Assembly: GCA_021797995.1 (NCBI GenBank) | Contig: JAJZYR010000001.1 | Location: forward strand, 79,342-143,341 | Reading direction: 5' to 3' | Source of the DNA: Candidatus Micrarchaeota archaeon | Lineage (GTDB): Archaea; Micrarchaeota; Micrarchaeia; Micrarchaeales; CABMGC01 | DNA length: 64,000 nucleotides | Shown: one piece after another, positions 1,611 to 63,550 of the stretch | Numbering within the stretch: position 1 is the first letter of the stretch | Layout: every line of letters begins with the position of its first letter | The notes under the pieces: generated by a model | What the model was told of the DNA's origin: nothing | What the model saw: the letters and a program-made list of their open reading frames with translations, nothing else | Database searches by the model: none | Program-made: the position numbers and the translations under genes

Positions 1611-1658
1611 AACAAGACCTGCTGCCTGGACTGAAAGATGAAGCCAACACCATTTATA

Positions 1659-2729: not shown

Positions 2730-2730
2730 G

Positions 2731-7172: not shown

Positions 7173-7306
7173 CGCGGGTGTGCAGAAAGGCGCCCGGGGA
7201 TCCCGAGGGGCAGCACGATGCCATCAAGGAGCTATGCAGACTGAAAAAGCCAGCCACCATTCATCGATGGAGGAATACCGTTGGCATGCGGGCCCTGGAT
7301 GCCGCG

Positions 7307-12520: not shown

Positions 12521-12738
12521 GCTCCCGGTCCGATCTCCTGCTGCCTCTTGAGGCAGCTATAGGATAATGCGGATATGCAATATATATTCAATATGTTAGT
12601 ATCTTGTATCTTTATAGTATTTGTAGTGCCGCTGCTGCTTTAGTTGCGCTCCGACTTACGCATGGCTGCAAACCAGCGGCTAAGCAAAGCCTTCCCGCCC
12701 ACAAGCTTTTAATACATACACTGCAAGTGATAAACGGG

Positions 12739-17858: not shown

Positions 17859-18042
17859 CTGTTTAGTATTTTGAAGTTACTATTGGCAATTTATTACAGT
17901 ATAAGAGGCCATTGGCCTTTATGGCTCCTCGCACTGGCGATGCCAGAGCAAGAGGAGCGGCAGCCCTAGCCACCGTGAGGGCTTTTACCTGAGTACCTGC
18001 ATCATCGAGTAGATATAATATTTATTGTCCTCCAATGCATGC

Positions 18043-18228
18043 ATGCGTGATATGATGGAGAAGGTAGTGTTTGAATTTACACAGAATGGCCCGGTCCTGG
18101 TCAAAAAAGACGGAAAGGTGGAATTTGCCTTGTGCAGATGCGGCCATTCGACTAAAAAGCCGTTCTGTAGTGGAGCACATGTGGATGCAGGATTCAAAGC
18201 CGACCGCAGTATGCTGGAGCTGAAATAG
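18043..18228 (+). CDS. CDGSH-type iron-sulfur domain protein (variant motif)
   Basis: CRCGHSTKKPFCSGAH matches C-x-C-x2-S-x3-P-x-C-[D>S]-G-A-H. ATG 18043 lies about 25 nt after gatataatattta. Confidence 0.6.
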   Translation: MRDMMEKVVFEFTQNGPVLVKKDGKVEFALCRCGHSTKKPFCSGAHVDAGFKADRSMLELK

Positions 18229-18320
18229 CGGGACCTCGTGATAAGGCCAGTGAGGCGCCGTAAAAAGCGTTTCGCTTTCGCCCCACACTATTGTACTACG
18301 CCAGACAACACAGAATATAG

Positions 18321-19466: not shown

Positions 19467-19575
19467 AATATCAATTTTGCATTACTATTCTATAAAACTT
19501 GCCTACTACGCTTCCAACTACGTCTGACCGATATGTGGTACTGTCATCTAGCTACTTATGAAACCGCTATTGAAT

Positions 19576-19591
19576 GTGGATGGACTCTGCG
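19576..19591. repeat. direct repeat copy of the tRNA-Ala(GGC) 3' end plus trailer (att-like)
   Basis: gtggatggactctgcg here matches gtggaatggactctgcg at 21226-21242. That is an 11-nt exact core plus 5 further nt with a 1-nt indel. The second copy is the last 11 nt of the tRNA plus its 3' trailer. Confidence 0.65.
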
Positions 19592-19672
19592 ATAGTCAGT
19601 CATTGAGTATGATGTACAAACACTATCACCTGATGATGTTTAACATCAAACACAGTTATTCGCAGTCGCTTA

Positions 19673-20560
19673 CTATTTCAGATATCTTCGATACTCTTTT
19701 ATATATCTTCTAAAGAACCACGCCACAAATATAGAATCAATTTTTTTGACCTGTGCCCTTTCCAAGGCATTATAATATCCTATCCTATTTTTGTAGGATA
19801 TATTGAGCATCGGATAACCAAGTCTGTTTAGAATAAAGTTCATAATGAGCCTTGATAATCTTCCATTTCCGTCTATAAACGGGTGTACTGTAACAAATTT
19901 TAAGTGTGCTAGTGCAGCCAACTCAACAGGATGCATTTTCATTCTGTTTTTATTGTACCAACTAAAGAAATCCTCAAGTAACGGCATGACTTCTACAGGA
20001 CTTGGAGGTATAAATTTGCTGCCATGTATCCAAACCTGCCTCGTTCGTATTTTTCCAGCTATATCCTTCTTTGTATTTTCAAAAAGAGTATGGTGCCATT
20101 CCAAGATGAGTTGCAGAGTCAGACCTTTTTTATATCTCAGCATATTATAAAAGATATTCGAATGCGCCTCGGCTTCTTTAGCATCTCTCGAAGGTTTATT
20201 TGAAGGTGTCACTCCATGCTGTAATAAATTAGCGGTTTCTTTTAGGGTTAGTGTTGAACCTTCTATTTTTTGAGTATCATAAGTAAACTTAATCATAAAT
20301 CCTTCAATTTCTTTGTCTTTTTCAGAGGGAGTTGCAGAACCGATGTCTTTTTTATAGGACGCCTTTATCTTATCCAATGATAAATACCACTTCTGAGTGT
20401 AAACCTGTGTGAGAAAATCGCTCTTTATTTTATCTAAATTCTTAGGTATACTACTCCCCAGATATTTCTCCTTCTTAATGACAGTTCCATTAAGCCTGAA
20501 AGAGTGTTCGATATAGTAGTACTTTTTATTACCGTATTTCCGTTCCCTTATATTTACCAT
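19673..20560 (-). CDS. Fic-domain protein (AMPylase family)
   Basis: HPFIDGNGRLSRL is the canonical HPFx(D/E)GNGR motif. An upstream TQKIEGS helix motif is present. ATG 20560 (MVNIRERKYG) lies about 25 nt after a minus-strand tttataaat TATA box. Confidence 0.85.
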   Translation of the reverse strand: MVNIRERKYGNKKYYYIEHSFRLNGTVIKKEKYLGSSIPKNLDKIKSDFLTQVYTQKWYLSLDKIKASYKKDIGSATPSEKDKEIEGFMIKFTYDTQKIEGSTLTLKETANLLQHGVTPSNKPSRDAKEAEAHSNIFYNMLRYKKGLTLQLILEWHHTLFENTKKDIAGKIRTRQVWIHGSKFIPPSPVEVMPLLEDFFSWYNKNRMKMHPVELAALAHLKFVTVHPFIDGNGRLSRLIMNFILNRLGYPMLNISYKNRIGYYNALERAQVKKIDSIFVAWFFRRYIKEYRRYLK

Positions 20561-36675: not shown

Positions 36676-37896
36676 ATGATACTGAAGGAAACACTTAGGC
36701 AGATAGTCAAAGCTCAGAGGAAAGACTTAGAATCGTTCAGCTACGGAGTAGAAAGGGAAGAATTAGGTGAGATAAAACTCAATATGCATTACGCATTGAT
36801 ACTATCAGGTATAAGACGATGTGGTAAGAGTACTCTACTTCACCAATTGCTTAAAAAACTTCCAAATTTCTATTATCTAAACTTTGAGGACACACGGCTA
36901 GACAGCTTTCAAGTTGAGGATTTCGAAAAGTTAGATGAAATCTTCAAGGAAGATTACAGTGAATCCGAATACTATCTTTTCGATGAAATACAGAATATTG
37001 ATAAATGGGAGCTTTTTGTAAGATCCAGACTTGACAAACAGAAGAAATTTATTATTACAGGCTCTAACGCTTCGCTTTTAAGTAAGGAGCTTGGTACTAG
37101 ACTCACAGGCAGGCACATCAACATGGAACTGTTTCCATTCTCCTTTATGGAGTCGCTTTCTATGACTAAGGTAAAGGCAAGCGCAACTTCATTCTCAGAA
37201 TACTTAAGAAGTGGAGGGTTTCCAGAATATCTGAGATATAAAAAACAAGAAATACTGCGCGAGTTATTAACAGACATAATACAAAGGGATATTGTAGTAA
37301 GGCACAAATTGCGCGATTCTAAAACAGTGAAGACACTTGCGTTATATCTGCTTAGTAACACGGGCAACGAGTTTTCGTATAATAACCTTAAGAAGATGTT
37401 CAATCTGGGGTCAGTGAATACCGTAATAGCATTTGTTTCTTATTTTGAGGACAGCTACCTTCTATTTACTGTGCCAAAGTTTGATTACTCGCTTAAGAAA
37501 CAGATAGTTAATGCAAAAAAAATATATTCTATAGATAATGGTCTTTCGACCTCAAATTCGGCTTCGTTCTCTTCAGATTTAGGAAGAATGTTAGAGAATT
37601 CTGTATTCTTGCATCTTCGTAGGAGATATAAAGAAATATTCTACTTCAAAGGAAAAAGAGAATGCGATTTCTTAGTAAAGGAGCAAAACAAGATAAAAAT
37701 GGCAATACAGGTCTCGTATGAGCTAAACGAAGGAAATAAACAGAGAGAATTTGACGGACTTCTTGAAGCTATAAAAGAGTTTGATTTGGTAGAAGGATTA
37801 ATACTTACATTTGACCAAGAAGACAAATTTGAGATTGAGGGAAAACACATAATAGCAAAACCGGTTTGGAAATGGATGCTAGAAAGCAATTTGTAA
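36676..37896 (+). CDS. AAA+ ATPase, COG1373 type (AAA_14 + DUF4143), paralog 1
   Basis: GIRRCGKST Walker A, YYLFDEIQNIDKWE Walker B, ITGSNASLLSKELGTRLTGRH, C-terminal ECDF...IQV. AT-rich. TATA catttaaata lies about 25 nt upstream. Confidence 0.85.
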   Translation: MILKETLRQIVKAQRKDLESFSYGVEREELGEIKLNMHYALILSGIRRCGKSTLLHQLLKKLPNFYYLNFEDTRLDSFQVEDFEKLDEIFKEDYSESEYYLFDEIQNIDKWELFVRSRLDKQKKFIITGSNASLLSKELGTRLTGRHINMELFPFSFMESLSMTKVKASATSFSEYLRSGGFPEYLRYKKQEILRELLTDIIQRDIVVRHKLRDSKTVKTLALYLLSNTGNEFSYNNLKKMFNLGSVNTVIAFVSYFEDSYLLFTVPKFDYSLKKQIVNAKKIYSIDNGLSTSNSASFSSDLGRMLENSVFLHLRRRYKEIFYFKGKRECDFLVKEQNKIKMAIQVSYELNEGNKQREFDGLLEAIKEFDLVEGLILTFDQEDKFEIEGKHIIAKPVWKWMLESNL

Positions 37897-37995
37897 TGTA
37901 TGAAAGTGAAAAAGGAGGAACGAGATTAAAATTGTTTTATCTATGAGTCTGTGTTCAAAAGAAATATCTCCAATTTGGATTTTACCTAGTACACA

Positions 37996-38113
37996 AACCT
38001 TTTTGGAAAGGTTAATCGAAAACACTGGGTGCGAATACAGCCAGATTTGCACCGTGTCTGTTTATATTTCTAAATGCGGTATAATCTGTGTGCGAAGACA
38101 CAGATGTTCGCAT
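37996..38113 (+). repeat. conserved non-coding module R, copy 1
   Basis: Hairpin aaccttt-ttgg-aaaggtt (37996-38013). Hairpin 38023-38056. TATA tttatatt (38061-38068). gtgtgcgaa...ttcgcat hairpin. Homologous to 42857-43010 and 45542-45695. Confidence 0.8.
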
Positions 38114-41577: not shown

Positions 41578-42852
41578 ATGGATAAAGAAACGCTCAGGCT
41601 CGTAATAGTTGACCAGAGAAAGAGCCTCGAGGAAAAGCTTAGAGACAAAAACATAATCGTTCGGGATGCAAGTAAGTCGATAGTGCTGAAAGCCCCGACC
41701 GCCTTCATAGTCCTCGGGGTCAGGCGCTCTGGCAAGTCTACGCTTTCGGAGCAGTTGTTTATTGATGACAAATTTGGTTATATAAATTTTGATGACGAGA
41801 GGCTCCTAGGCGCAACTAGAGATGACCTTAATATCATACTTCAGATATTCTATGAGTTGTACGGATCCGATCTTGGCAATATAATACTCGATGAGATACA
41901 ATTAGTACCTGGTTGGGAACCGTTTGTGAGCAGGCTTAGGGATACAAAGAAGGTCATAGTCACTGGGTCTAGCTCTAAACTGCTTAGTGGCGAGCTTTCG
42001 ACCAGGCTGACAGGCAGGCACATCGACCTCCTGTTGTTTCCGTTCAGCTTTAATGAGTTTCTTACGTATAAACACTGGAACATACCTAAGGCTTTCTCTA
42101 CTACCGATAGGGCAGAGGTTGTAAGATTACTCGATGAGTATATAAGCTCTGGGGGATTCCCGGAGCAGTTTACCTTGGGCAGGCAGATAATCAGGAACAT
42201 TTACAATGATATAATAACAAAAGACATCGTAATAAGGCATAAGATAAAGTACATAGACGACTTAAGGCAGGCAGCGCGGTTTTTGGTATCAAACAGCTCA
42301 AAAGAATTTACATACTCTTCTCTTAAAGGTGTGACTGGGGCCAAGAGCATTATAACCCTATCGAATTGGGTGAGGTACCTTGAAGAGGCATATCTTATCT
42401 TCAAAATAGAGCGGTTTTCATATAAACTGAAGCAAACAATCCTCGCGCCTAAAAAGATATACTGCGTCGATGTTGGTATAATAAACGGGATAAGCCCGGA
42501 GCCGACGGGCAACAAAGGCAGATTGATGGAGAATACTGTTGCAATGGAACTGATAAAGGGCAGCAAAAATGTCGGATTTGAGGTATTTTACTGGAAGGAC
42601 CATCAAGGGAGGGAGGTAGATTTTATTATTAAGGACGACAGAAAGGTCGCTAAGCTAATCCAGGCTACTTATGCAACAAGCCGTGAAGCAATTGAAGATA
42701 GGGAAATAAAGTCGCTAGTAATAGCTTCTAACGAACTGAGATGCAATAATCTCTTCATAGTCACGTGGGATTATGAGGGCAGTATCGTGATAGAAGGAAA
42801 GAAAATAGCACTTGTTCCATTATGGAAGTGGCTGCTGAATAAAGAATTATGA
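41578..42852 (+). CDS. AAA+ ATPase, COG1373 type (AAA_14 + DUF4143), paralog 2
   Basis: GVRRSGKST, NIILDEIQLVPGWE, VTGSSSKLLSGELSTRLTGRH, C-terminal REVDF...IQA. TATA atttaaataac lies about 25 nt upstream. Confidence 0.85.
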   Translation: MDKETLRLVIVDQRKSLEEKLRDKNIIVRDASKSIVLKAPTAFIVLGVRRSGKSTLSEQLFIDDKFGYINFDDERLLGATRDDLNIILQIFYELYGSDLGNIILDEIQLVPGWEPFVSRLRDTKKVIVTGSSSKLLSGELSTRLTGRHIDLLLFPFSFNEFLTYKHWNIPKAFSTTDRAEVVRLLDEYISSGGFPEQFTLGRQIIRNIYNDIITKDIVIRHKIKYIDDLRQAARFLVSNSSKEFTYSSLKGVTGAKSIITLSNWVRYLEEAYLIFKIERFSYKLKQTILAPKKIYCVDVGIINGISPEPTGNKGRLMENTVAMELIKGSKNVGFEVFYWKDHQGREVDFIIKDDRKVAKLIQATYATSREAIEDREIKSLVIASNELRCNNLFIVTWDYEGSIVIEGKKIALVPLWKWLLNKEL

Positions 42853-42856
42853 CAAT

Positions 42857-43010
42857 GCTTTACGAAAAGCTTTACCAAAGAGTCTGGGTGCGTAACCTTT
42901 TTGAAAAGGTTGAACCAGAACACTGGGTGCAGTTTTGTCGTTATTTGCACCGTGTCTCTTTATATTTCTGAAATGCCATAGTCTGTGTGCGGATACACAG
43001 ATGCGCGCAT
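42857..43010 (+). repeat. conserved non-coding module R, copy 2
   Basis: Starts 5 nt after the ATPase-2 stop. Hairpins at 42894-42911 and 42921-42954. TATA at 42959-42966. By hand alignment there are 3 mismatches in about 117 nt versus copy 3. Confidence 0.85.
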
Positions 43011-43061
43011 TTTGAAATATGATCTACTGTGGCTTGAATGGCTAGAAGAAATGACGGTAAA

Positions 43062-43119
43062 AGCTTAGAGCGCGTCGTTCGCAACGATGAGATTGCGAGT
43101 TCAAATCCTGCCGAGTCCA
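43062..43119 (+). pseudogene. intron-less tRNA-Ala(CGC)-derived 3' fragment
   Basis: CGTCG-TTCGCAA-CGATG anticodon arm joined exactly at the exon-exon junction of the 36483 tRNA. T arm GCGAG-TTCAAAT-CCTGC. CGAGTCC-A. The 5' acceptor strand and most of the D arm are absent. Confidence 0.65.
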
Positions 43120-43230
43120 TTTTATGTTTACGAGTGAAGCAGGTGCGATGGACTTGTCTTTAGTCTTTGGTAGAAATAGATGTTCTATATTCTAGAATAT
43201 CCAGAAGATTTATATATGTATATCATCACA

Positions 43231-43248
43231 TATATCACTAGTGATATA
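43231..43248. promoter_or_regulatory. perfect 18-bp palindrome, candidate PadR operator
   Basis: tatatcact|agtgatata lies between the TATA-like gatttatatatg (43207-43218) and ATG 43249. Confidence 0.5.
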
Positions 43249-43479
43249 ATGAGAAACGTAGAAAACGTAGAGAAAGAAGACTGTGGATGCAGCTGCAGAT
43301 GCGGAGGTGGAAGCAGAGGAATGCGCAGGCATATGGGCTTCGGTGATATGGACTTGACAAATGACGAAACAGCTGAACGTCTGAGATACTACAAAGATGA
43401 CCTCACGGAAGAAATAAAGCTCATAGATAAACGGATAGCGGATCTCAAGGCAGAAGCCACAAGGAAAGGCAGCAAATAG
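43249..43479 (+). CDS. small Cys/Gly/Arg-rich plus coiled-coil protein (DUF5320-like, tentative)
   Basis: MRNVENVEKEDCGCSCRCGGGSRGMRRHMGFG followed by a heptad-like tail (LTEEIKLIDKRIADLKAEA). ATG 43249 lies directly after an 18-bp palindrome. Its stop overlaps the PadR start. Confidence 0.55.
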   Translation: MRNVENVEKEDCGCSCRCGGGSRGMRRHMGFGDMDLTNDETAERLRYYKDDLTEEIKLIDKRIADLKAEATRKGSK

Positions 43480-43859
43480 TGCAGGCTATGCCTATAAATT
43501 CAGGGTACTGCAACTGCGGTCCGTTTAGGGTGAGCGTGATCCCCCACGGGCTTCTCAAGCCGTATATTCTCAGGCTGATATCAGAGAGGCCTATGTACGG
43601 CTTTGAGATAATGGAGCAAATATTCGAGAAGACAGGCGGCATGTGGCGGCCCGGTCCTGCAGCCACGTATACTACGCTTGAGTGGTTGGAGCGGAATGGA
43701 TATATAAAATCGCTGAATGCAGTGCAGAGGTCCGAAAAGCAGAGGAAACAGTATAAGATAACTGAAAAAGGCCTCACTGCGCTCACAGACTATGCCGAAA
43801 CGTCAAAAATGATAGCGAACCGCATGAAAAGGTTCGGATTGCTGTATGGTGGCCTTTAA
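43479..43859 (+). CDS. PadR-family transcriptional regulator
   Basis: LLKPYILRLISERPMYGFEIMEQI...GPAATYTTLEWLERNGYI is a PadR wHTH. The start is either GTG 43479 (TAGTG overlap) or ATG 43488. Confidence 0.8.
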   Translation: MQAMPINSGYCNCGPFRVSVIPHGLLKPYILRLISERPMYGFEIMEQIFEKTGGMWRPGPAATYTTLEWLERNGYIKSLNAVQRSEKQRKQYKITEKGLTALTDYAETSKMIANRMKRFGLLYGGL

Positions 43860-44223
43860 TGATCGTTATCCCAATTACTACAAAATATATACTGATGATA
43901 GTATAACGGCAGTCAGATTTGCTGTAGCAGTTTAAAGTCAAAATCTCTTACTTCATCTACCCCGCGTACTACTGACGGTTGATGTTCTTTATAGTCAACT
44001 GCCAATAATTCATCCAGCATTTTACTGCCTAAAAGACCAAATTTTACCTGGGGATACGCGTATAACAAATTCCTGCCTTCCACGTAATCGACAATATACT
44101 AATGCTTATCTTACAGAACAGCACAAAAGGTGCAGAGGAGCAGAGTAATGATCAGCCGTCTTTCATTTACGTACAGTATACTAAACGTAAAGCATATAAA
44201 CATGTATAACATACTATACAGAT

Positions 44224-45522
44224 ATGGCTAGCGTTGATGACTTTAAGTATGTGCTTACCCTCTGGAAAGAGATGGAGCTACCAGAAGTCATAGACAGGAA
44301 GATTACTTTAGATTTAGATGCAGACAAAATAATAGTCATTGCTGGTGTAAGACGCTCTGGTAAAACGAGTTTAATGTTTCAGCACATTAAAGAGCTAATG
44401 AGAAGAAAGGTGGGAAAGGACAATATTATTTATGTTAATTTTGAGAATGAGCGCCTAATAGCTACTAAAGCAACAGACATGGATAATCTCATGGTTGCGC
44501 ATTCGCAAATATTCACTCCTGTAGAAGGAATTGTGTATTTGTTCTTGGATGAGATCCAGAACGTAGAGAACTGGGATAAATGGATAAGGAAGATATATGA
44601 CACCAAGAAGTATAGAATTATAATAACCGGATCGTCATCGCAATTACTTAGCAGCGAGATAGCTACGGCGCTTGCAGGCAGGAACCTTTCTTATACTGTT
44701 TATCCATTCTCTTTTAGCGAGATACTGAAATCGAAGGGTATAACCACCGAAATTAGTAGCATAAAATTTTCTTCAAAGAAAGGCATTGTACTGAAAGCGC
44801 TAGATGAATTTCTCGAATATGGCTCTTTTCCAGAGGTCATACTTTCAAATGATGCTACAAGAAAAATGGATCTTTTATCAGCGTACTTTGATGCAATATT
44901 CTTTAGGGACATAATAAAGCGATATAACCTGAGGGAAATGGGTGCATTAAACATTTTCCTTAAGATACTTGCTAGTAACTATTCGACTTATTTCAGCTCA
45001 ACAAAAGCCCAGAATTATTTCAATAGTATGGATTTTAAGATTAGCAGGGTTACAATTCTTAACTTTTTAGAATACTCTAAATCTGTATTCTTTGCTGAAA
45101 CCTTGGAGCAATACTTAAAAAGTCCAAGAAAGCGATTTGCTAGACAGATAAAGAGTTATATTGTTGACATTGGGCTATCAAGATTGTTTACAGAGATAGA
45201 TAAAGGTAGGGCACTTGAAAATGCGGTGTTTATTGAGCTGCTTAGAAGGAGAAAGGCACCAGATAATATCTATTATCTGAAATTGAAATCAGGAAAGGAG
45301 ATTGACTTTATTATAGGTTGGAAACCTACTAAACTAATACAGGTATGCTATAAATTTTCTAGCAACGATGTAAAAAAAAGAGAAACTCTGGCACTAGTTG
45401 AAGCTGCAAAAACACTTAGACTTAAAGAAGGGACCATAATTACTTATGATTATAGCGGCAGTGAGGTTATAAATGGAATAAAGATATTACACACACCCTT
45501 CTGGGAATGGGCCCTTACGTAG
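44224..45522 (+). CDS. AAA+ ATPase, COG1373 type (AAA_14 + DUF4143), paralog 3
   Basis: GVRRSGKTS, YLFLDEIQNVENWD, ITGSSSQLLSSEIATALAGRN, C-terminal KEIDF...IQV. TATA gcatataaac lies about 25 nt upstream. Confidence 0.85.
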   Translation: MASVDDFKYVLTLWKEMELPEVIDRKITLDLDADKIIVIAGVRRSGKTSLMFQHIKELMRRKVGKDNIIYVNFENERLIATKATDMDNLMVAHSQIFTPVEGIVYLFLDEIQNVENWDKWIRKIYDTKKYRIIITGSSSQLLSSEIATALAGRNLSYTVYPFSFSEILKSKGITTEISSIKFSSKKGIVLKALDEFLEYGSFPEVILSNDATRKMDLLSAYFDAIFFRDIIKRYNLREMGALNIFLKILASNYSTYFSSTKAQNYFNSMDFKISRVTILNFLEYSKSVFFAETLEQYLKSPRKRFARQIKSYIVDIGLSRLFTEIDKGRALENAVFIELLRRRKAPDNIYYLKLKSGKEIDFIIGWKPTKLIQVCYKFSSNDVKKRETLALVEAAKTLRLKEGTIITYDYSGSEVINGIKILHTPFWEWALT

Positions 45523-52296: not shown

Positions 52297-55200
52297 CTAA
52301 CCATTTCGGGGATTGCGGGAGCCGTGCCGTGCAAGCGGTCCCCTTCTCCTTTTGCCCTTCCTGCTCAGGTAGTATGCTGCAATCATTAGCAGGATTATTG
52401 CAACTGCAATAACAGCGATTACCGTGCTGGTTGCGGCCGGCGGCTTTGCCTGCGCAGGCGGCGCGGCCGCCTGGGAGGTCGTCTGTGCCGTAGAGACTGG
52501 CACCGTAGTGGTTTTCGGCGGCAGGGCCTGGAAGACGCCTATTATAGGGTCGCCTGGCGCAAGGCTGAAGGAGACTGTGCACGCTGACGCATTGGCAGTG
52601 GAAGTTATCGCAGCCCACGCACCGTTGAGCAGCTTGTATACGCTTATAGTTGGAGAGGGTGCACTGCACGGATAGTGAACCGTGATGTTGAGCGATGCGG
52701 AAGGCGAAGACACGTTGACTCCGAATGAGAGCAGCTTCTTGTATCCCGTCAGGTTGGGTGTCGATGCCGTGTCGTTCGCAAGCGACACATTTGAAGTGAA
52801 AGGGACGTTTGACGCAGTATAGACAAGTATGAGCGCATTCCCGTTCTCGAAGTTGATGTCGAGCGGGCTGTTGCTGGATATGTAAGGTATAAGGCCATTG
52901 AATGACGGCCCTGTTACGTTTATGATACGCAGGGCGTTGGTGGAGAGGTAGAAGCTGACCGAGGCATTGTGGAGTATGGGTGTGTACTGTATGCTGTTCA
53001 GCATGGCGTAGCAGCTGCCCTGGCCTGAGGCGCCTATCTGCACAGGATTGCCGAGCGTGAGCACCTTTAGCGCGTTGTTTACGCTGATGCCTGTGGCGTT
53101 TGGACTGATGTAGTTGTCCGTCACCGTGAATGCCTCGCCGCAGAGCGTGATGCTGAAGGTATTTAGCTGGGCAATGCCGTTGACGATGTAGCCGTTAGGG
53201 ATAGTGGATATCGAAGGCTTCTGCACCCCGCCACCGCCGCCGGTTGCCATGCCTGACGAGCCTCCGGTTCCGTAGTATATCGTAGTCGTCGATGGCGCAG
53301 GAGGACTTGGATTTGGAATCGAGAACTGCGTGCCTGGATCCGTACTGCCTACAACAGTGTTTGCGCCCCATAGGCCATATACGGTATCGTTAGTGAGTCC
53401 TGTAGCAAGCAGGAGAGATGCAGGAGCCCTGCTGCCGAAGGAAGGAAGCTTGAGGAACGCCCTGTTATCCCCGTAGGTGGAGCTGTGGGTTATGTAGAGC
53501 ACGAGGGAGTTGTTCCTTCCCCCTCCGATAGTCGTATTTGCGCCAAGAGTCGGGGTAAGTATTAGGGTATTGGCTGAAGTGACGTTAACGAGGAGCGTTA
53601 TCTCGTTTATGGGCAGGGTCAGCGTGAAGGTGTTGTTGATAGTCGTGCTTGCACTCGGCGGGAGCAGCGACCAGTATCCCGTGTACGGAGGCTGACCGCC
53701 ACTGAAGAAGAGTGTTAGGAAGGTAGTCTTTCCTACATCGACAGTGGTGTTTGTTATAGAGACTGTTGCAGGGGAGATTGCGGGGAAGAACACAGAGCTG
53801 AAGATTCCGTTCGCGGTTTCCTGCGGAGTGCCTGCATCCTTTACTGATACCTTAACGAGGTTCGGGCCGGCAGAGGCTGTGACGGAGTTGAATGTGAAGG
53901 AGTTTGTCGTATCCTCTGAGACGCTGTTGTACGCTATCACATTCGTGGCCATGTAGTATGAGATTGCCATTGGCGTGATGGGCCCTATTGCACTGCCTCT
54001 GTCGGTGACGTTCGCTGCCATCTCTACTATCCCGTTGCCTGCGGAATTTATGTAATTCATGTTGTTTATGTTGGTGTTGGAAGAGGTAAAGGACCTGACG
54101 AACGTATATGCTGGGAACTGGCCCAGCCTCGTTGAGTTGGTCAGGTTTATCAGCATGAATGTGTTCGGGACGTTTGACTGCGCGTTGGCGATCTCGGGCA
54201 TGTTGTACGTGAAGTACGTGACCGAATTTGTTGGTATCGCGGAGCCCGGAACAAGCAGAGTATTGGTTGTAAGTATCAAATTGACCGGGATCCCGTTCTC
54301 GCCGGAGTACGTAACTAGGTTATTAGGCGCAATTGGCGTGTTGGCAGGCACCTCGCCAAGGAAGTTCCCGTTAGGCACGTTGTAGAGCAGCGTGGGGCCG
54401 TTGTACGTGTACTGTGCAAGCTGAATGTTGTTTGAGGGATCCTGCGAAGGCAGCACCCCGTTTGCGTTGATTGAGTCGTAGATGCTGATCCGCACGCCTG
54501 GTGCAGGTGGCGTTAGGCCATAGATCCATACTCCTGTAATGTTGTAGGCGAGGAACGTGGGCAATGAAGAAGGGCCTTGCATGAGGGCGGTGTTGGAGCT
54601 TGCAGGCAGCGCATTTATCCCATAGATCAGGAAGGACCGTACCTTCGAGCCATTCAGCCCGCCTCCCCACCCTGCGACAGCAACGATGAACGGGGGTGTG
54701 TACGCGCTCACGTAGTTCGCACTGATGCCAAGGTTGGTTATCGTTACCTCTGGATCTACAAGCTTTCTGGCTATGGCATTCTGTATCTGCGGCGAATTTG
54801 ATGTGAGCACCGTAGCAACGTTGAGCGTATTGGACTGCATGAGCGAGTATGTGTCAAGGTTGTAGATTACGCTGTTCTGCACCCCGCCTGCGCCGGGCTG
54901 GTACTGCGCACCTACCGTATTGATTGTGAACATGCCGGTGTGGTTGCTCGATACGACGAAGAGGTTCGGAAGGAAGGCGGGCAGCACACTTTCGTTGCCT
55001 CCGGCAACCGCAAGCACATTGCCTGTAGACATTGCATTGAAGGCAATGCCATTCCACGCGTAAGGAGTCACTGTAAGCGTGTTTCCTGGATTCTGATATT
55101 CGAACATCGGGTTCGGAGGCGTTCTGCTGCTTGGACTTTGCGGCTGCGGCATCTGAAACGGAGGAACTAGGGAAAACTGCATGAGGTCGTATCCCCCAAG

Positions 55201-57183
55201 TACACTTCCTGCAAACCAGTTGTATGTATATGAGTTCGGTGCAGGGCCAGGGGTCCCTCCAATTGGCATTATGTTGCCAGTAAAGGCCTTGCCTTGCTGA
55301 AGTATTGGCCCCTGGCCCTGCGGGAACTGCGCTATCCCAAATGCGAGCCCGTTGTTCACGTTTACGTTTACGCTGAACGGCGAGTTAAATATGTATGGCG
55401 AGGAGGTGCTGATGTCGTTGGCTACTGCATTGAGCGTGTACGCTCCCGAAACGCTCGGTGTGAAGAGGAGTGAGGTAGGGGTGCACTGCGCTGTGGATGT
55501 GATCCCGTTAACCGAAATGTAGCCCGGCTTAAGGATGTTGACATCGAATAGGTCTGTCCCTGCGCATGGATAGCCTCCAGCTACAATCACGTTTACCGTC
55601 AGGGAGGTGCTCTGCCCCACCCCAATAACAGGATTGGATGGCTGTGAGATCGTAACGGCTGGCTGCAGGTTAATCGTGAGCGTGTTCGAAACGGACAGGG
55701 TATTTGCGCCTGTACTGTCGTATATAAGGGCATTGAATGTCCATACGCCCGCTATGGTATTCGGAGGCACTGTGGTTCCGAATGGATAACCTTCTGCTGC
55801 ATTCTGTAATATATTAAGGTGCAGGTCGTTGACAGGAGAGGAGGTGTAGAACATGTTCACGTTTGACGGAATGGCATAATAGACGCTGTTGGATACCATG
55901 CCGTTGTATCCGCCTATGCAGACTATCGCACCAGGGAAGACGCAGCTCATGTTCTCTGTTGCGACCGGATACGGCACCGTGTCAAAAAAGCTTCCTGCAC
56001 CGCCATTCTGCGGATTGACGAATGTATAGTTTGCCATTGAGAGGGGTACCGACGGAGCAGAGGCATACCCTCCGATGCAATATATGCCTACTCCGTTTGA
56101 CTGGAAGGCAACGCAGCTCGTGCCGCCTTTATAGGAGCCGCCAAACGCACCGGATGATCCAGAAATGGAGGACCAGGATATTCCCGTCGGGCCGGGAGTG
56201 CCCTCTGCATAAGCGCCATTTGGTCCGATGCAATGGAACATGCCTCCGGTCGGAGCCTGGTCGCAGTGGGTGGCACCTGACCATGCCAGCGAGTTTGCCT
56301 GCGTCCATGCGCCTATGCCTCCTGAATTCGGCAGTATGTTTGCGTAGTAAACCGCATTGGTAGGGATGCCAATGGCATTTCCGTCTAGGGTGTTTGTCGT
56401 GGTTCCTCCAAAGCAGTAGATGATTCCAGAAGCGGCGCCGCAGCTTGTGTTGGCAATGAAGAGAGGGTAGCTGTTTGTAGATGCCCATGAGCTTATCACA
56501 TTCCCAGAGACGGTTGCGAAGGTGACTATATTTGCGTATGCCGAATGCCCTGCGTATGATAGAGTAAGACCGTATGGGTTGTATCCCCCTACGCAATAGA
56601 TTGTGTTTGAGGGCATAATGCAGCCTGTGCCTATTGTATTGGTCATGAATGCGTTTGCAGACGGCACCCAGGCGCCAATCCCGTTTGCGCCGTAGTTATT
56701 CACTGGAGCGGCAAAGGCGTTGTAGACATAGTTGTCGCTTATGCCGTTGAACCCGTAGCCTGCCATGCAGTAGATGTACCCTGCGCCGGGATTCGAGACG
56801 CAGCTCTCCGCCTCTATGTTTGAGGGGTATGCGTTTGTCGCAACCCATGTATCGAGCGCAGCTGGAACTGTGCCGGGATTTGATGTCTCTGGATTGCCGC
56901 CGCCGATATTGGCTAAGCCTGAAGATGCGGGGGCGGTAATAATCTCGTTGAATGAGTAAGGAGGGATGCCATTGCTTACTATAAAGCTCTGCGCTGCAGT
57001 GAGCTGCGGTACGTCGATGAGCGAGTTTGTCAGTATCTCTGGACAGGGAGATGCAGTCAGGATATTGCCAGGACCTGTGCCGCAGACTCCTGTGGCATTG
57101 AGCGGTGCAATATAGATAAATGCTGCCGCAAGGATTGCCAGGAAAAGTGCCAGGCCCGACAGGCGGTTGCCCATAATTCCCAC
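52297..57183 (-). CDS. giant surface protein: signal peptide, six-bladed Kelch-like propeller, beta-rich repeats, Thr/Pro linker, C-terminal TM anchor
   Basis: 1628 aa. N-terminal LALFLAILAAAFIYIAP. Six IYC(I/V/F)GGY-type blades, about aa 120-440 (nt 55863-56826). Dense N-x-S/T sequons and very few charged residues. The C-terminus reads PPKTTTVP...VIAVIAVAIILLMIAAYYLSRKGKRRRG. The start is GTG 57183 or ATG 57174. Confidence 0.8.
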   Translation of the reverse strand: MGIMGNRLSGLALFLAILAAAFIYIAPLNATGVCGTGPGNILTASPCPEILTNSLIDVPQLTAAQSFIVSNGIPPYSFNEIITAPASSGLANIGGGNPETSNPGTVPAALDTWVATNAYPSNIEAESCVSNPGAGYIYCMAGYGFNGISDNYVYNAFAAPVNNYGANGIGAWVPSANAFMTNTIGTGCIMPSNTIYCVGGYNPYGLTLSYAGHSAYANIVTFATVSGNVISSWASTNSYPLFIANTSCGAASGIIYCFGGTTTNTLDGNAIGIPTNAVYYANILPNSGGIGAWTQANSLAWSGATHCDQAPTGGMFHCIGPNGAYAEGTPGPTGISWSSISGSSGAFGGSYKGGTSCVAFQSNGVGIYCIGGYASAPSVPLSMANYTFVNPQNGGAGSFFDTVPYPVATENMSCVFPGAIVCIGGYNGMVSNSVYYAIPSNVNMFYTSSPVNDLHLNILQNAAEGYPFGTTVPPNTIAGVWTFNALIYDSTGANTLSVSNTLTINLQPAVTISQPSNPVIGVGQSTSLTVNVIVAGGYPCAGTDLFDVNILKPGYISVNGITSTAQCTPTSLLFTPSVSGAYTLNAVANDISTSSPYIFNSPFSVNVNVNNGLAFGIAQFPQGQGPILQQGKAFTGNIMPIGGTPGPAPNSYTYNWFAGSVLGGYDLMQFSLVPPFQMPQPQSPSSRTPPNPMFEYQNPGNTLTVTPYAWNGIAFNAMSTGNVLAVAGGNESVLPAFLPNLFVVSSNHTGMFTINTVGAQYQPGAGGVQNSVIYNLDTYSLMQSNTLNVATVLTSNSPQIQNAIARKLVDPEVTITNLGISANYVSAYTPPFIVAVAGWGGGLNGSKVRSFLIYGINALPASSNTALMQGPSSLPTFLAYNITGVWIYGLTPPAPGVRISIYDSINANGVLPSQDPSNNIQLAQYTYNGPTLLYNVPNGNFLGEVPANTPIAPNNLVTYSGENGIPVNLILTTNTLLVPGSAIPTNSVTYFTYNMPEIANAQSNVPNTFMLINLTNSTRLGQFPAYTFVRSFTSSNTNINNMNYINSAGNGIVEMAANVTDRGSAIGPITPMAISYYMATNVIAYNSVSEDTTNSFTFNSVTASAGPNLVKVSVKDAGTPQETANGIFSSVFFPAISPATVSITNTTVDVGKTTFLTLFFSGGQPPYTGYWSLLPPSASTTINNTFTLTLPINEITLLVNVTSANTLILTPTLGANTTIGGGRNNSLVLYITHSSTYGDNRAFLKLPSFGSRAPASLLLATGLTNDTVYGLWGANTVVGSTDPGTQFSIPNPSPPAPSTTTIYYGTGGSSGMATGGGGGVQKPSISTIPNGYIVNGIAQLNTFSITLCGEAFTVTDNYISPNATGISVNNALKVLTLGNPVQIGASGQGSCYAMLNSIQYTPILHNASVSFYLSTNALRIINVTGPSFNGLIPYISSNSPLDINFENGNALILVYTASNVPFTSNVSLANDTASTPNLTGYKKLLSFGVNVSSPSASLNITVHYPCSAPSPTISVYKLLNGAWAAITSTANASACTVSFSLAPGDPIIGVFQALPPKTTTVPVSTAQTTSQAAAPPAQAKPPAATSTVIAVIAVAIILLMIAAYYLSRKGKRRRGPLARHGSRNPRNG

Positions 57184-59150: not shown

Positions 59151-59299
59151 TATGTCACAGACCTTCTTATTCCGTCACGGTGTATTTATATCCGACTATT
59201 TGCCTTTATATCCGGCTGGTTTGACGGCCCATCGAAGCGTATTCTGTGCTCATTCTGACATCCCCCTGCAAATTAAGGGGAAGTCGGCCTCGCATTTTA

Positions 59300-59950
59300 C
59301 TATATAGTTGAATCTCCATTTCCCAGTAGCTTAAGCGACACGCTATCCCATATCAATGCCCTAAGGAGCCATTCCTGCTCGGGCAGGTGTTCGTCTATCA
59401 CAAGGCTCCTTACCTTTACAATCCATTCATCATACGCTTTTTTCGCCCTCTCTACAGATTCTGCACAGCTGTTGCCCTTCATGATAGAAAGAGGTATCCT
59501 GTTTGTTGAGTCAAAGAAGGGTCTTGAAAGCTCATCTTTAAGTGGTGTTACAGTTTTGGTATGGTCATATATTATGACAAACTTCTCCGTATAACCAATA
59601 AAGCATTTAGTATTTTTGGATACTGCAGCTTTCCCTAGAGACTTTGCAGCCTCACACGCTATCGTATATATTATTCCTTTAAATTTCGATATATTACGCC
59701 CATCAATGAGGGCCTTATCCCCGTATCCGTAAATCGCATCTTCATCCCCATGGCCATTGACTATGAAGAGGTCTATGCCCTTTGAGGCAACTATTCCCTC
59801 TATCACATCCCTGCTGGCTCTTTTGCTTATAAGCTGTACCACTTTAAGGCCGCACCTCTTTCCCTCGGTTGTAATGGCCTCGCTCCATTTGCTCACGTAG
59901 GTGGTCTCTATGTCGTGGTCAGGAAGAGTTATGATTACACTCTTTTCCAT
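59300..59950 (-). CDS. hypothetical protein with His-Gly ... Ala-Cys dyad pattern (possible clan-CD caspase/gingipain-like fold)
   Basis: 216 aa. LFIVNGHGDEDAIYG and IIYTIACEAAKSLG are spaced as the catalytic His and Cys strands of clan-CD peptidases. This is pattern-level evidence only. AT-richer than flanks. Last gene of an overlapping three-gene operon. Confidence 0.55.
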   Translation of the reverse strand: MEKSVIITLPDHDIETTYVSKWSEAITTEGKRCGLKVVQLISKRASRDVIEGIVASKGIDLFIVNGHGDEDAIYGYGDKALIDGRNISKFKGIIYTIACEAAKSLGKAAVSKNTKCFIGYTEKFVIIYDHTKTVTPLKDELSRPFFDSTNRIPLSIMKGNSCAESVERAKKAYDEWIVKVRSLVIDEHLPEQEWLLRALIWDSVSLKLLGNGDSTI

Positions 59951-60156
59951 TGGGCCTCATCCTTGAAGAGTTCAAGATAACGAAGCTCTATCTTCGCAAG
60001 GAGTACTCCGGTACCATCCCTCTTCTTGAGAGCCTCAATCGCCTTCTTCTTATCAATAGACTCGCCGCCGCCTATGGCAATGCTGATATGGCTCGGCATC
60101 TTCTCGTACCTTTTTATCATGATGCCCCAGAATTCATCAGGTATCTCACCAGTCAT
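59935..60156 (-). CDS. small hypothetical protein
   Basis: 73 aa. The start forms an ATGA overlap with the upstream gene, and the gene overlaps the downstream gene by 16 nt. Confidence 0.5.
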   Translation of the reverse strand: MTGEIPDEFWGIMIKRYEKMPSHISIAIGGGESIDKKKAIEALKKRDGTGVLLAKIELRYLELFKDEAQWKRV

Positions 60157-60440
60157 AGCAGTCCCATTTTATGCATTTTATTTATAACCTTTCTGCCTTC
60201 AGGCCCGCCTGTAGCCGCTTTTCTGTAGGTCTGCTTCCATGTGAGTGTTTTGTTGCCTAGTTTTACGATTGGCATATCGCGCTCTCCGACAGGCAGGATG
60301 GACATTATACGTCTTAATTTATCTACGTAATCAAGGTATAAGACCTTTGGCTTCTTTTTGCGATAGGCCGACATTCCCAGACCCTCAACCTGAGTTACAT
60401 TATACGCGCTATGTGACATTCCTCCGCCCGCAAGCGGCAT
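60153..60440 (-). CDS. small basic hypothetical protein
   Basis: 95-aa ORF. The likelier start is ATG 60374 (MSAYRKKKPKV, 73 aa), about 27 nt after cgtataatgt. Confidence 0.45.
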   Translation of the reverse strand: MPLAGGGMSHSAYNVTQVEGLGMSAYRKKKPKVLYLDYVDKLRRIMSILPVGERDMPIVKLGNKTLTWKQTYRKAATGGPEGRKVINKMHKMGLL

Positions 60441-60652
60441 GGGCTTCTTGCATCAATGGAGTAAAATCCATAGTATCATTGCCATGCACGCTTATATGCC
60501 TTTGCGGTTCGCTTTCACCCCGCCCCGAAGAGCGCGGGCTTTCCGCCACCTCCTGTCACTCGTTCCGTAGACTGTCAATTATTTATAGAAATATTCAACT
60601 TTTTATTGAAAAAAAGCAAACATTTATATATCTAAAGCTGAATAGCATATGC

Positions 60653-61087
60653 ATGGCCTCTGAGGAGAAGATCGTGGTCAGGCAGATCGGCAGGCCGCAT
60701 AAGGAGAACGCCGATGCACTGCTGGTATGGTTCTGCGAGTCGCTGGACCTGTCCGGAAATAAGGACATAATGGGGCCGGAGATGCTCAGGGAAATAATAA
60801 ACGGAAGCCTGAACGGGAACGGAGTGACGAGCAAGGAGTTGAACTGGAAGCTTAATGTACCGAGGACCACGGTGATATACCACCTGAACAGGTTTATCTA
60901 CTCAGGGATTGTGATAAGGAGGGGCAGGAGGTATTACCTGCGCTCTGAGGACATGAAGAGCACCCTGCAGGAACTCCAGGCAGACATGATAAGGGAGTTC
61001 CAGCGCATGATGGACATGGCCCAGAAGCTGGACGGGATACTGGAAGATGAGACATATGCCAGAAGGAGAAGAGCAAAAAAAGGATAG
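60653..61087 (+). CDS. winged-helix transcriptional regulator, co-transcribed with grpE-dnaK-dnaJ
   Basis: 144 aa. TSKELNWKLNVPRTTVIYHLNRFIYSGIVIRRGRRYYL is an HTH plus wing. ATG 60653 lies about 25 nt after tttatata (60623-60630). The 3' end overlaps the grpE start. Confidence 0.65.
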   Translation: MASEEKIVVRQIGRPHKENADALLVWFCESLDLSGNKDIMGPEMLREIINGSLNGNGVTSKELNWKLNVPRTTVIYHLNRFIYSGIVIRRGRRYYLRSEDMKSTLQELQADMIREFQRMMDMAQKLDGILEDETYARRRRAKKG

Positions 61088-61655
61088 CTTGGGAGGAGCC
61101 GAAGCCGCGGGGAAGGTGCCTAAGGATGGCAGTGGCAGCGGGGAGAAGGGACTGGGAGCGCCCGAGAAGGAAGAGGCGGGGAAGGCTAAGCCCGAAGAGG
61201 AGCTTAGGGAGAGGCTCCTGAGGCTCGCCGCGGAATTCGACAACTACAAGAAGAGGACTGCCAAGGACATCGAGAATGCGAAGAACATAGGCAAGGCGGA
61301 GATGGCACTGAAGCTGCTTCCGGCCCTGGATGAATCTGAGCTTGCGCTCAATGCGCTTGGGGAAAAGGGGGCCAAGGAGGGCATCGGCATGGTGCTCGCG
61401 AACCTCACGGATGCGCTAAAGGGGCTTGGGCTCGTGGAAGTGGACGCGCACGGGACCTTTGATCCGTACAGGCATGAGATAGTGCTTGCCAGGGAGAGCG
61501 AGAAGAAAGAGGGTACGATCCTTGAGGTCGTAAGGAAAGGGTATGAGCTGAATGGCATCATGCTCCGGCCTGCATCGGTAATCGTCTCGAAGGGGACTGC
61601 CGAGGCAGCAGGCAGGAAGGAGGAGAAACTGCAGCAAGAACAGGATAAATTATGA
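61047..61655 (+). CDS. grpE: nucleotide exchange factor GrpE
   Basis: [13 protein letters not shown] signature and C-terminal beta domain ([16 protein letters not shown]). Confidence 0.85.
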
Positions 61656-61669
61656 TCATAGGTGAAAAA

Positions 61670-63550
61670 ATGGCTAAAATAATAGGAATTGATTTGGGAA
61701 CCAGTAATTCTGCGGCAGCGGTACTTGAAGGAGGGAGACCGGTTCTGATCCCAAGCTCTGAAGGGACATCGTTATACGGAAAGTCGTTTCCAAGCTATGT
61801 CGCCTTCACAAAGGACGGCCAGAGGCTCGTAGGCGAGCCGGCAAGAAGGCAGGCGGTGGCAAATCCTGATGGAACCGTGAATGCATTCAAGAGGAAGATG
61901 GGCACTGACTACAAGTACAGGATCTTCGGAAAGGACTACACCCCCCAGGAGCTCTCCGCAATCTTATTGCAGAAGATAAAGAAGGACGCGGAGGCATTCC
62001 TTGGAGAGGAGATAAAGAAGGCCGTGATAACGGTGCCGGCATACTTCAATGACAACCAGAGGCAGGCCACAAAGGACGCCGGGGAGATCGCCGGGCTTGA
62101 GGTGGTAAGGCTCGTGAACGAGCCCACGGCAGCATCGCTCGCATTCGGAGTCGACAAGCTCAGCAAGGAGATGAAGATCCTTGTCTACGACTTCGGAGGC
62201 GGAACGCTCGACGTGACGATAATGGAGTTCGGCAACGGCGTCTTTGAGGTGAAGTCCACGAACGGGGACACGCAGCTCGGAGGCACGGATATGGACAACG
62301 CTATAGTAACGTTCCTGCTTGCCGAAGTGAAAAAGCAAACAGGGATAGACATCTCAAAGGACACGCAGGCGCTGCAGAGGCTCCGCGAGGCCGGGGAGAG
62401 GGCCAAGATCGAGCTCTCGACAACGCTCACTACGGAGATAAACCTGCCTTTCCTGACAATGGGGCCCGGTAACGCGCCGGTTCACTTCGCATACCCGCTC
62501 GCAAGGGCGAAGCTCGAGGAGATAGTCTTCCCGATTGTCGATAGGACCACAAAGCCCGTAAGGCAGGCGCTCACGGACGCAAAGCTCGAGCCCAAGGACA
62601 TCGAGAAGGTGATCCTTGTCGGCGGGCCTACCCGAATGCCCATAGTGCAGAGATACGTGGAGCAGCTCCTCGGGAAGAAGATCGAGAGGGGCGTCGATCC
62701 GATGGAGGCCGTTGCCTTCGGGGCGGCAATACAGGCAGGAGTGCTTACCGGAGAGGTAAAGGACATCGTACTTCTAGACGTAACTCCGCTCTCCCTCGGG
62801 CTTGAGACCCTCGGGGGCATCATGACCAAGATCATAGAGAAGAATACGACGATACCTGCGAAGAAGACCCAGATATTCAGTACCGCGGATAACAACCAGC
62901 CTGCAGTGGAGATCAACATACTGCAGGGCGAGAGGCCCATGGCGAAGGACAATGTAGGGCTCGGGAGGTTCCAGCTTACCGGGATCCCTCCCGCACCAAG
63001 GGGGGTTCCGCAGATCGAGGTGACCTTCGACATCGATGCGAACGGGATCTTACATGTAAGCGCGAAGGACAAGGCGACCGGCAGGGAGCAGAGCATGCAG
63101 GTAGTCGCACCGAACAAGATGGACAGGTCGGTGATAGAGAAGAAGGTGAAGGAAGCGGAGGAGTTTGCCGAGGCGGACAAGAAGGAGCTCGAGAAGGTGC
63201 AGACAAGGAACGACGCGGAATCGCTGATTTACTCCGCTGAACATACCATGAAGCAGTTCAAGGACAAGATATCCAAGGACGTTGCAGACGAGGTTGAGGC
63301 TGCAAGGAAGGCGCTCCAGGAGGCCATCGAAAAGGAGGACTACGACGCGATGAAGGCGAGGATGTCGGACCTCGGCGACGCGCTTCAGAAGGTAGGAGCA
63401 GGCATGTACGGCCAGGGGCAGGGTGGGGGCGGTGGAGCCGCGGGGCAAGGCCCTGAAGAAGGCGCGGGAGCGGGAGGAGGTGCAGATCCTGGTGCTGGCG
63501 GCGGCGGTGCAGGCGATACGGTAGATGCGGACTTCAAGGTAAAGAAATAG
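61670..63550 (+). CDS. dnaK: molecular chaperone DnaK (Hsp70)
   Basis: [19 protein letters not shown] and [11 protein letters not shown] motifs. Gly-rich C-terminal tail. Confidence 0.95.

Follow-up and report, generated by a model that had tools for sequence, protein, structure and literature searches.

Results

The locus and its genes

Three small overlapping genes, designated here A, B and C, form a cassette on the minus strand of a 64,000-nucleotide stretch of an archaeal contig (JAJZYR010000001.1, positions 79,342 to 143,341); this whole stretch is referred to as the window. Gene C encodes a protein predicted to be a minimal cysteine peptidase of clan CD. The features of the cassette are as follows.

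59300-59950, minus strand: gene C, 216 amino acids (from the list of open reading frames)
59935-60156, minus strand: gene B, 73 amino acids (from the list of open reading frames)
60153-60374, minus strand: gene A, 73 amino acids from the Met at 60374 (start from alignments of homologues)
60153-60156, minus strand: stop/start overlap ATGA of A and B, which couples their translation (read from the sequence)
59935-59950, minus strand: 16-nt overlap of the stop region of B with the start of C, translational coupling
59750-59752, minus strand: codon of His67 (motif NGHG), which lies at the C-terminal end of β3 and is predicted to be catalytic
59654-59656, minus strand: codon of Cys99 (motif [AS]-C), which lies at the C-terminal end of β4 and is predicted to be catalytic
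60375-60652, no strand: divergent intergenic region between gene A and the HTH-grpE-dnaK operon

An earlier note on this DNA, made from the letters alone, had described three minus-strand reading frames with these two overlapping junctions, and the layout is exact. The longest open reading frame of gene A occupies 60153-60440 on the same strand and codes for 95 amino acids from the first ATG; the start was put at 60374 because the alignments of homologues cover the protein solely from that internal Met (MSAYRKKKPK...). A TATA-like element, GTATAATG, can be read at 60398-60405, with its centre about 28 nt upstream of this start, a position that is consistent with a leaderless archaeal transcript of gene A. 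A, B and C are real genes rather than chance reading frames, since homologues of C reach E = 1e-138 and those of A and B were recovered by hidden Markov models (HMMs) in about 100 other loci.

Protein C

Protein C is identical to a “hypothetical protein” recorded from a metagenome-assembled genome of Candidatus Marsarchaeota. The search with this single sequence gave homologues in 30 clusters, the best E values going down to 1e-138; the profile search gave at least 487 clusters, all of about 215 amino acids and none with a Pfam domain. The named homologues come from Marsarchaeota, Aenigmatarchaeota, Nanoarchaeota, Pacearchaeota and Woesearchaeota, and every one of them is called “hypothetical protein”. 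Protein C itself has no family match in Pfam, NCBIfam, PADLOC or PHROGs and no sequence match in the PDB, whether the single sequence or the family profile is used.

The AlphaFold2 model, built on an alignment of 26 homologues, has a mean predicted local distance difference test score (pLDDT) of 95.6 and a predicted template modelling score (pTM) of 0.91. In the Foldseek comparison of this model with the PDB, 15 of the 20 top matches are clan-CD peptidases (probability 1.00, TMq 0.4-0.62). The first is the activated SAVED-CHAT structure 8tl0 (E = 5.5e-6, TM 0.60), and the best-scoring classical peptidase is gingipain R, 1cvr (E = 2.4e-5, TM 0.62), with the RgpB pro/mature complex 4ief also matching. 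Further matches include separase (5fby, 5fc2, 7nj1), C11 proteases (6nag, 6mzo), caspase-11, caspase-4, legumain and the plant asparaginyl endopeptidases and ligases (among them the legumain-type ligase 6l4y). Unrelated α/β proteins stand lower in the list (TM 0.25-0.35), and the named matches in BFVD, a library of viral structures, are caspase-domain, metacaspase-like and clostripain-like proteins. The earlier note had proposed a clan-CD cysteine peptidase from motifs and named a structural comparison as the check, with a non-peptidase fold, for example a flavodoxin-like one, as the outcome that would tell against it. The comparison with solved enzymes gives the clan-CD fold and not a generic flavodoxin-like one.

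Three features define clan CD (McLuskey and Mottram, PMC4357240): a sheet of six strands; a catalytic pair, of which the His, followed by Gly, is situated where β3 ends on its C-terminal side and the Cys where β4 does; and, on the loop that follows β3, a smaller sheet of three strands. The order of elements in the model of protein C, β1-α1-β2-α2-β3-[three short strands]-β4-α-β5-helices-β6, matches that definition. Strand β3 (residues 61-63) is followed by N65-G66-H67-G68 and β4 (93-95) by A98-C99, position 98 being Ala or Ser across the family; the placement of His and Cys agrees with the clan by secondary-structure position, not by superposition. Between β3 and β4, DSSP assigns short strands at 67-69, 72-74 and 80-83, which correspond to the small sheet of the L3 loop. 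Strand β5 (116-120) is followed by a helical region and the terminal strand 206-210. Both residues of the dyad are invariant in 120 of the 120 full-length homologues, as are N65, G75, Y95, G106, F117, G119, Y120, P136 and N150, and this point further supports the peptidase assignment. The two motifs on which that assignment was originally based, FIVNGHGDEDAIYG and IIYTIACEAAKSLG, are both present; the spacing of about 40 residues assigned to them has to be corrected, since His and Cys are 32 residues apart.

The chain, a single domain in the model, opens directly with β1; it lacks a prodomain as well as any signal peptide or transmembrane segment. It has no match to Peptidase_C25 (PF01364), although two of the 26 family members give sub-threshold scores, the best at E = 0.017; the Pfam and NCBIfam profiles of peptidases C14, C11 and C13 and of CHAT (PF12770) match none of the 26 members at E up to 5. 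By sequence criteria, protein C is therefore outside C25, C14, C11, C13 and CHAT. We conclude that it represents a new family with the caspase-hemoglobinase fold, very compact and with both residues of the dyad intact, and this family is among the smallest catalytic domains of clan CD. We infer from the same model that protein C is an active cytoplasmic endopeptidase using the dyad His67-Cys99.

Conservation of the gene triad

Ten loci were reached through homologues of C, in Marsarchaeota-like, Aenigmatarchaeota, Woesearchaeota and Nanoarchaeota genomes and in further contigs. All have the genes in the same A-B-C order with coupled junctions, and all differ in their flanks. Two divergent homologues of B were found independently of C, and each is flanked by an A and a C. 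The triad is thus present in 13 of the 13 curated loci, the window included.

For a wider sample, metagenomes were scanned with a degenerate pattern linking NGHG to CFIGY, which gave at least 120 loci, and the HMMs for A, B and C were then applied; a locus was regarded as scorable if it contained a full-length C with at least 520 nt of upstream sequence. Among the matches listed, each of the 84 C genes that qualified is directly preceded by B and A, and the HMM search turned up neither an orphan A nor an orphan B. Together with the curated set, the order and orientation are kept in 97 of 97 scorable loci, which answers the earlier proposal that co-occurrence of the three genes be checked. The junctions are conserved as well. 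A and B overlap by 4 nt in 73 of the 91 metagenome loci listed and by 1 nt in ten more, and the 4-nt overlap is found in all nine loci checked by hand; the B/C junction ranges in the metagenome loci listed from -41 to +12 nt, mostly from -8 to +1. The lengths are uniform across loci (about 61 amino acids for A, 83 for B and 215 for C), and the mean pairwise identities of 45%, 40% and 44%, respectively, indicate similar rates of divergence. A-B-C is a conserved operon of many DPANN archaea. One apparent bacterial relative (Candidatus Crickella) was discarded as a false positive inside a 708-amino-acid glutamine-synthetase-like reading frame.

Proteins A and B

The two small proteins, which had been said to resemble nothing recognisable, indeed have no match in Pfam, NCBIfam, PADLOC, PHROGs or the PDB sequences. 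The alignment of A predicts a helix, a loop with Arg32 (Arg in 92% and Lys in 3% of the sequences), a β-hairpin ending in the invariant Trp46, and two helices; the C-terminus is invariably formed by two aliphatic residues, [ILV][ILV]. One of the small proteins had also been described as strongly basic. This holds for A in the window, where the isoelectric point is 10.5, but not for the family, where it varies from 4.6 to 11.2; the strong basic charge is lineage-specific and not a family trait. We rejected the charge as a sign of DNA binding, since it is not conserved.

The AlphaFold2 model of B, built with the homologues described below, is confident (pLDDT 89.9) and consists of a helix, a β-hairpin, a second helix and a long helix at the C-terminal end, beyond which the tail is variable. 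Two glycines, Gly29 and Gly50, do not vary in the family. Basic residues are conserved at positions 16, 25 and 36; position 16 is basic in 100% of the sequences and is located inside a predicted helix. Foldseek gives no significant structural neighbour for this model: the best match, archaeal prefoldin β, has E = 0.35 and TM about 0.4, and the prefoldin-like assignment was rejected as non-significant. A Pfam match of B to part of iron-containing alcohol dehydrogenase (E = 0.0056), far below the threshold and echoed by the same label at JGI, was attributed to a chance similarity of a Gly-rich strand.

The exhaustive search of 1.84e9 representative proteins gave 19 matches to B. All of them, except for proteins P0133 and P0137, share the signature W/K...R.E.MP...IGG...K...G...[YF]L. 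The former, a 265-amino-acid repeat protein, was rejected as a chance match. The latter (138 amino acids) is not an A-B fusion; it is a B-family protein with an N-terminal zinc-ribbon extension (CxxC...CxxC), the sole domain fusion seen for any of the three components. We also considered A and B as paralogues. The profile-profile comparisons align the same collinear region, yet the probability is 4.7%, 6.4% and 8.6% with 6, 11 and about 100 sequences, respectively, and the proposal was dropped.

Genomic context and composition

The flanks were surveyed in 41 non-redundant contigs with 130 flanking open reading frames. There is no conserved neighbour: no flanking family occurs more than four times. 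The commonest by raw count are of mobile-element or conflict types: MNT-type nucleotidyltransferases (4), type IIG restriction-modification genes (3), AAA_14/DUF4143 (3) and DUF2283 (3), followed by AbiEii (2), integrases (2), Bro-N (2), PD-(D/E)XK nucleases (2) and RadC. The neighbours in the curated loci include ParE, an SLFN-like helicase, MmeI, HsdR/RadC, HEPN-NTase, PIN-MazE, Fic and AbiEii. No CRISPR genes and no genes of cyclic-oligonucleotide-based anti-phage signalling systems (CBASS) are linked to the cassette in the curated loci or in the flank survey. The context differs even between close relatives.

At loci L007 and L008 (positions 573-4648), an MmeI-type type IIG gene and A-B-C together lie between the gene of ribosomal protein L15 (Ribosomal_L27A) and secY; this arrangement is an insertion into an otherwise conserved ribosomal-protein/SecY cluster. 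One contig carries two complete and divergent cassettes on its minus strand, at 7122-8196 and 11638-12735, about 3.4 kb apart. In about 9 of 114 loci (about 8%), a frameshift breaks gene C into two neighbouring pieces (L021, L034, L039, L068, L083, L104, L110, L112 and L114); these are either pseudogenes or assembly errors.

In the window, the tract had been noted as visibly richer in AT than its neighbours, and the measurement agrees. The GC content of the cassette is 0.45, compared with 0.55-0.57 in the flanking genes (DUF1749 α/β-hydrolase, GDPD, HTH, grpE and dnaK), and GC at third codon positions is 0.46-0.57 against 0.69-0.74. Among segments of the same size, the tract is only at the 16th percentile of GC, and stronger low-GC islands occur elsewhere in the window. 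Outside the Marsarchaeota-like group, the closest relatives show 38-49% identity and include the only named ones, those of Aenigmatarchaeota, with 38-45% identity and GC about 0.3. An acquisition of the window copy, which is of Marsarchaeota, from a low-GC DPANN lineage is plausible because the cassette is compositionally foreign and its only named outside relatives belong to the low-GC Aenigmatarchaeota.

Several other features of the window were recorded. GC goes down to about 0.35 near 18-20 kb, 36-38 kb and 44 kb; the corresponding islands are 17750-20500, 36676-38000 and 41578-45500, where GC is about 0.35-0.36 in the reading frames that begin at 19673, 36676 and 44224, compared with 0.53-0.57 in typical genes. 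Their composition suggests other horizontally acquired regions. Divergently from the cassette, 60653-63550 on the plus strand is a chaperone operon consisting of an HTH-like gene, grpE and dnaK; the first of these (about 144 amino acids from the Met at 60653) has just weak regulator-like PHROG matches and overlaps the start of grpE (61047). On the other side, a tandem pair of 13-nt repeats TTTATATCCG(A/G)CT is located at 59185-59217, between the stop codon of C and the start of the hydrolase gene. Read on the minus strand, these repeats are duplicated TATA-like boxes; the hydrolase therefore probably has its own promoter and is separate from the cassette operon. Further away, 52297-57183 on the minus strand is an open reading frame of 1628 amino acids. 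Its product has a hydrophobic segment at the N-terminus, repeats rich in Thr, Ser, Asn and Gly and, at the C-terminus, a transmembrane segment with a basic tail; it is probably an archaeal surface or S-layer-type protein.

Discussion

Predicted specificity of protein C and proposed mechanism

Clan-CD enzymes specific for Arg or Lys have a P1-binding acid at the start of α1 (Asp163 in RgpB, Asp365 in MALT1, Asp95 in TbMCA2) and further acidic residues on loops L4/L5, an acid of L5 being used by MALT1 as well. In protein C, Asp13 is located at the β1/α1 boundary (Asp in 97% of the homologues, otherwise Glu), and Asp139, conserved in 99%, is located on the loop after β5. Their equivalence to the known S1-pocket acids is topological, being judged from secondary-structure position and not from superposition; by this analogy, cleavage after Arg or Lys is predicted, and protein C probably has this specificity.

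The explanation that we favour, tentatively and at somewhat under an even chance, is a self-contained and horizontally mobile accessory module in which a minimal clan-CD protease, C, is served by A and B acting in trans. Protein C would be the catalytic domain alone, a cytoplasmic enzyme cleaving after Arg or Lys with the dyad His67-Cys99. Proteins A and B would provide its control or targeting in trans; we presume this because C has neither a prodomain nor a sensor domain of its own. Coupled translation would set a fixed proportion of the three proteins, and A and B would most likely bind C. It is tempting to propose that the loop of A containing Arg32, or a basic residue of B, fills the S1 pocket and keeps C inactive until a trigger removes the small proteins and C is released, as securin acts on separase or the prodomain on gingipain. 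In an alternative version, A and B would be substrates of C.

The biological role is a further step. The earlier note had proposed a toxin-antitoxin-like or defence module; the variable context, often with many mobile-element and defence genes, is compatible with it. The module behaves as an accessory and dispensable element, to judge from its changing flanks, the two cassettes on one contig, the C genes with frameshifts and the foreign GC content in the window, and this behaviour suggests such a role. The fully specified proposal is more doubtful, and we would put it at roughly one chance in three: a hitherto undescribed three-component archaeal protease system in which A and B would switch C on and off in trans, a prokaryotic equivalent of control by securin or by a prodomain. 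In DPANN archaea it would act as a mobile module of the toxin-antitoxin or abortive-infection kind, and the window copy would have been transferred to Marsarchaeota, a possible host lineage.

Comparison with known systems

Gingipain R (C25) is the best classical peptidase match by fold, and the acidic residue at the start of α1 in protein C is placed as Asp163 is in RgpB. The His-Cys spacing is similar. In the original numbering of gingipain, which we take to be His211/Cys244, the catalytic residues are 33 positions apart. As numbered in a review (His221/Cys244), the spacing is 23, compared with 32 in protein C. The RgpB prodomain inhibits the enzyme through an Arg loop inserted into S1 (same review), and this inhibition is the model proposed for A and B in trans. 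In contrast to gingipain R, to which it has no significant sequence similarity, protein C is half the size, has no N-terminal subdomain, Ig-like domain, prodomain or secretion signal, and is predicted to be cytoplasmic; it is archaeal and encoded with two small partner genes.

The CHAT proteases (SAVED-CHAT; TPR-CHAT/Csx29, “Craspase”), which provide the top structural match, are caspase-like proteases of multi-gene conflict modules and cut dedicated partners. They carry a fused sensor domain (SAVED or TPR) and require signalling through CRISPR or cyclic oligonucleotides, whereas protein C has no sensor domain, no match to the CHAT Pfam profile and no linked CRISPR or CBASS genes, and A and B are new families. 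Separase (C50), also among the top folds, is a clan-CD protease held in trans by a small, separately encoded pseudosubstrate protein, securin, and this pair offers what we regard as the closest functional analogy for a protease that would depend on small partners. The differences are considerable: separase is eukaryotic and of giant size, with large domains built of helices; securin is a disordered protein, while B is predicted to be well folded; and we found nothing to suggest that securin is homologous to A or B. The metacaspases and orthocaspases (C14B) resemble protein C in being prokaryotic or archaeal clan-CD enzymes that combine a His-Cys dyad with acidic S1 residues, located on α1 and nearby loops, and with the specificity for Arg/Lys that is predicted for protein C; protein C differs in the absence of a Peptidase_C14 match, of the p10 region and of extra strands, in its much shorter chain and in its operon context.

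Type II toxin-antitoxin systems are similar in organization rather than in fold. They are compact, translationally coupled and mobile, the small genes preceding that of a larger enzyme, and are often found in variable regions beside other toxin-antitoxin and restriction-modification genes. The cassette has three genes instead of two and no known toxin or antitoxin fold, and neither the family nor the structure searches recognised a DNA-binding domain in A or B. To our knowledge, a clan-CD protease is not an established class of toxin in such systems.

Alternative explanations

The most serious alternative, in our opinion unlikely though well short of negligible, is a housekeeping processing module of DPANN-type archaea. 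Protein C would then mature or turn over specific proteins of the cytoplasm; its targets might be A and B, or else partners in translation, secretion or proteostasis. A and B would be adaptors or chaperones instead of an antitoxin-like brake. A number of observations weigh against the mobile module that we favour, and most of them speak for this alternative. The protein lengths are strikingly uniform, with divergence that is moderate and similar in the three families, as is also expected of a conserved cellular function. Housekeeping neighbours do occur: there are loci in the ribosomal L3-L4-L23-L2 operon, between L15 and SecY, and beside SecDF, the proteasome α subunit and S8e/Gar1/TFIIB, and in the window the cassette is divergent to HTH-grpE-dnaK. 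None of the three proteins has a match in PADLOC-DB v2 at E up to 1; three scans of viral contigs and translated searches of phage and plasmid collections gave no copy of the cassette; and in the window it has no insertion scars or tRNA gene beside it, short imperfect repeats being at chance level. On the other hand, a housekeeping module agrees poorly with the absence of any conserved neighbour, with the island of foreign composition here, with a context that changes even among close relatives, with two divergent copies on one contig and with the frameshifts in about 8% of the C genes. Among the homologues obtained, the family is moreover seen in some archaeal lineages only, which would be unusual for a core function.

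The remaining alternatives concern what the protease does. CHAT or caspase-like proteases activate gasdermins or effectors of the Csx30 type by cleavage, and one study (PMC10028731) reportedly describes the CRISPR-associated endopeptidase Csx29. By the same logic, protein C might cut A and/or B after a conserved basic residue and release an active fragment. There are precedents among its closest structural relatives (SAVED-CHAT 8tl0 and separase), conserved basic residues in A (Arg32) and B (16, 25 and 36), and the long C-terminal helix of B with its variable tail; co-translation and strict co-occurrence would also fit an enzyme-substrate pair. However, A and B are very small, look soluble and have no recognisable effector domain, the cassette encodes no sensor component that could trigger cleavage, and Arg16 of B, within a predicted helix, is a poor protease site; we consider this improbable. 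A transamidase or ligase that attaches or processes A would have precedents within clan CD in GPI8 and the plant asparaginyl ligases, the legumain-type ligase 6l4y is among the fold matches, and the C-terminus of A is invariably [ILV][ILV]. The proposal is one by analogy. The terminal residue of A is partly forced by the ATGA overlap, since the last codon ends in A, there is no Gly-Gly end as in ubiquitin-like modifiers, and the cassette encodes neither an activating enzyme nor a target. We give it very little weight. Equally little can be given to protein C as a non-catalytic scaffold or pseudo-enzyme of caspase-like fold in a non-proteolytic operon. Its protease activity is a prediction from the model, and pseudo-orthocaspases are said, in one study (PMC6426788), to exist, which provides a precedent. 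The known pseudo-variants have lost the His/Cys dyad, while here the dyad with its neighbouring Gly and Ala/Ser is invariant in 120 of 120 homologues; this indicates selection on catalysis and makes a pseudo-enzyme unlikely.

Significance

We believe that the cassette represents a protease family that is new within an already known clan, in an operon of new architecture. Searches of the full-text literature found no description of the A-B-C family or operon, and the database names are all “hypothetical protein”. Proteases of clan CD are emerging as executioners in prokaryotic immunity (CHAT/Craspase, SAVED-CHAT, gasdermin-activating systems); the immune examples of which we are aware are large multidomain proteins, mostly bacterial. 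DPANN archaea are ultra-small and mostly symbiotic, with few known defence systems. The present family is abundant, with at least 487 sequence clusters and at least 120 metagenome loci; in the matches listed, all its members belong to archaea of tiny genome size, and the two small proteins accompany it throughout.

If A and B regulate C in trans, the cassette would offer a simple and tractable model of restraint and release of a caspase-type protease, and it would also give DPANN archaea a further candidate conflict system. Even if the role is a housekeeping one, a fold and a testable activity are given to three conserved “hypothetical” families.

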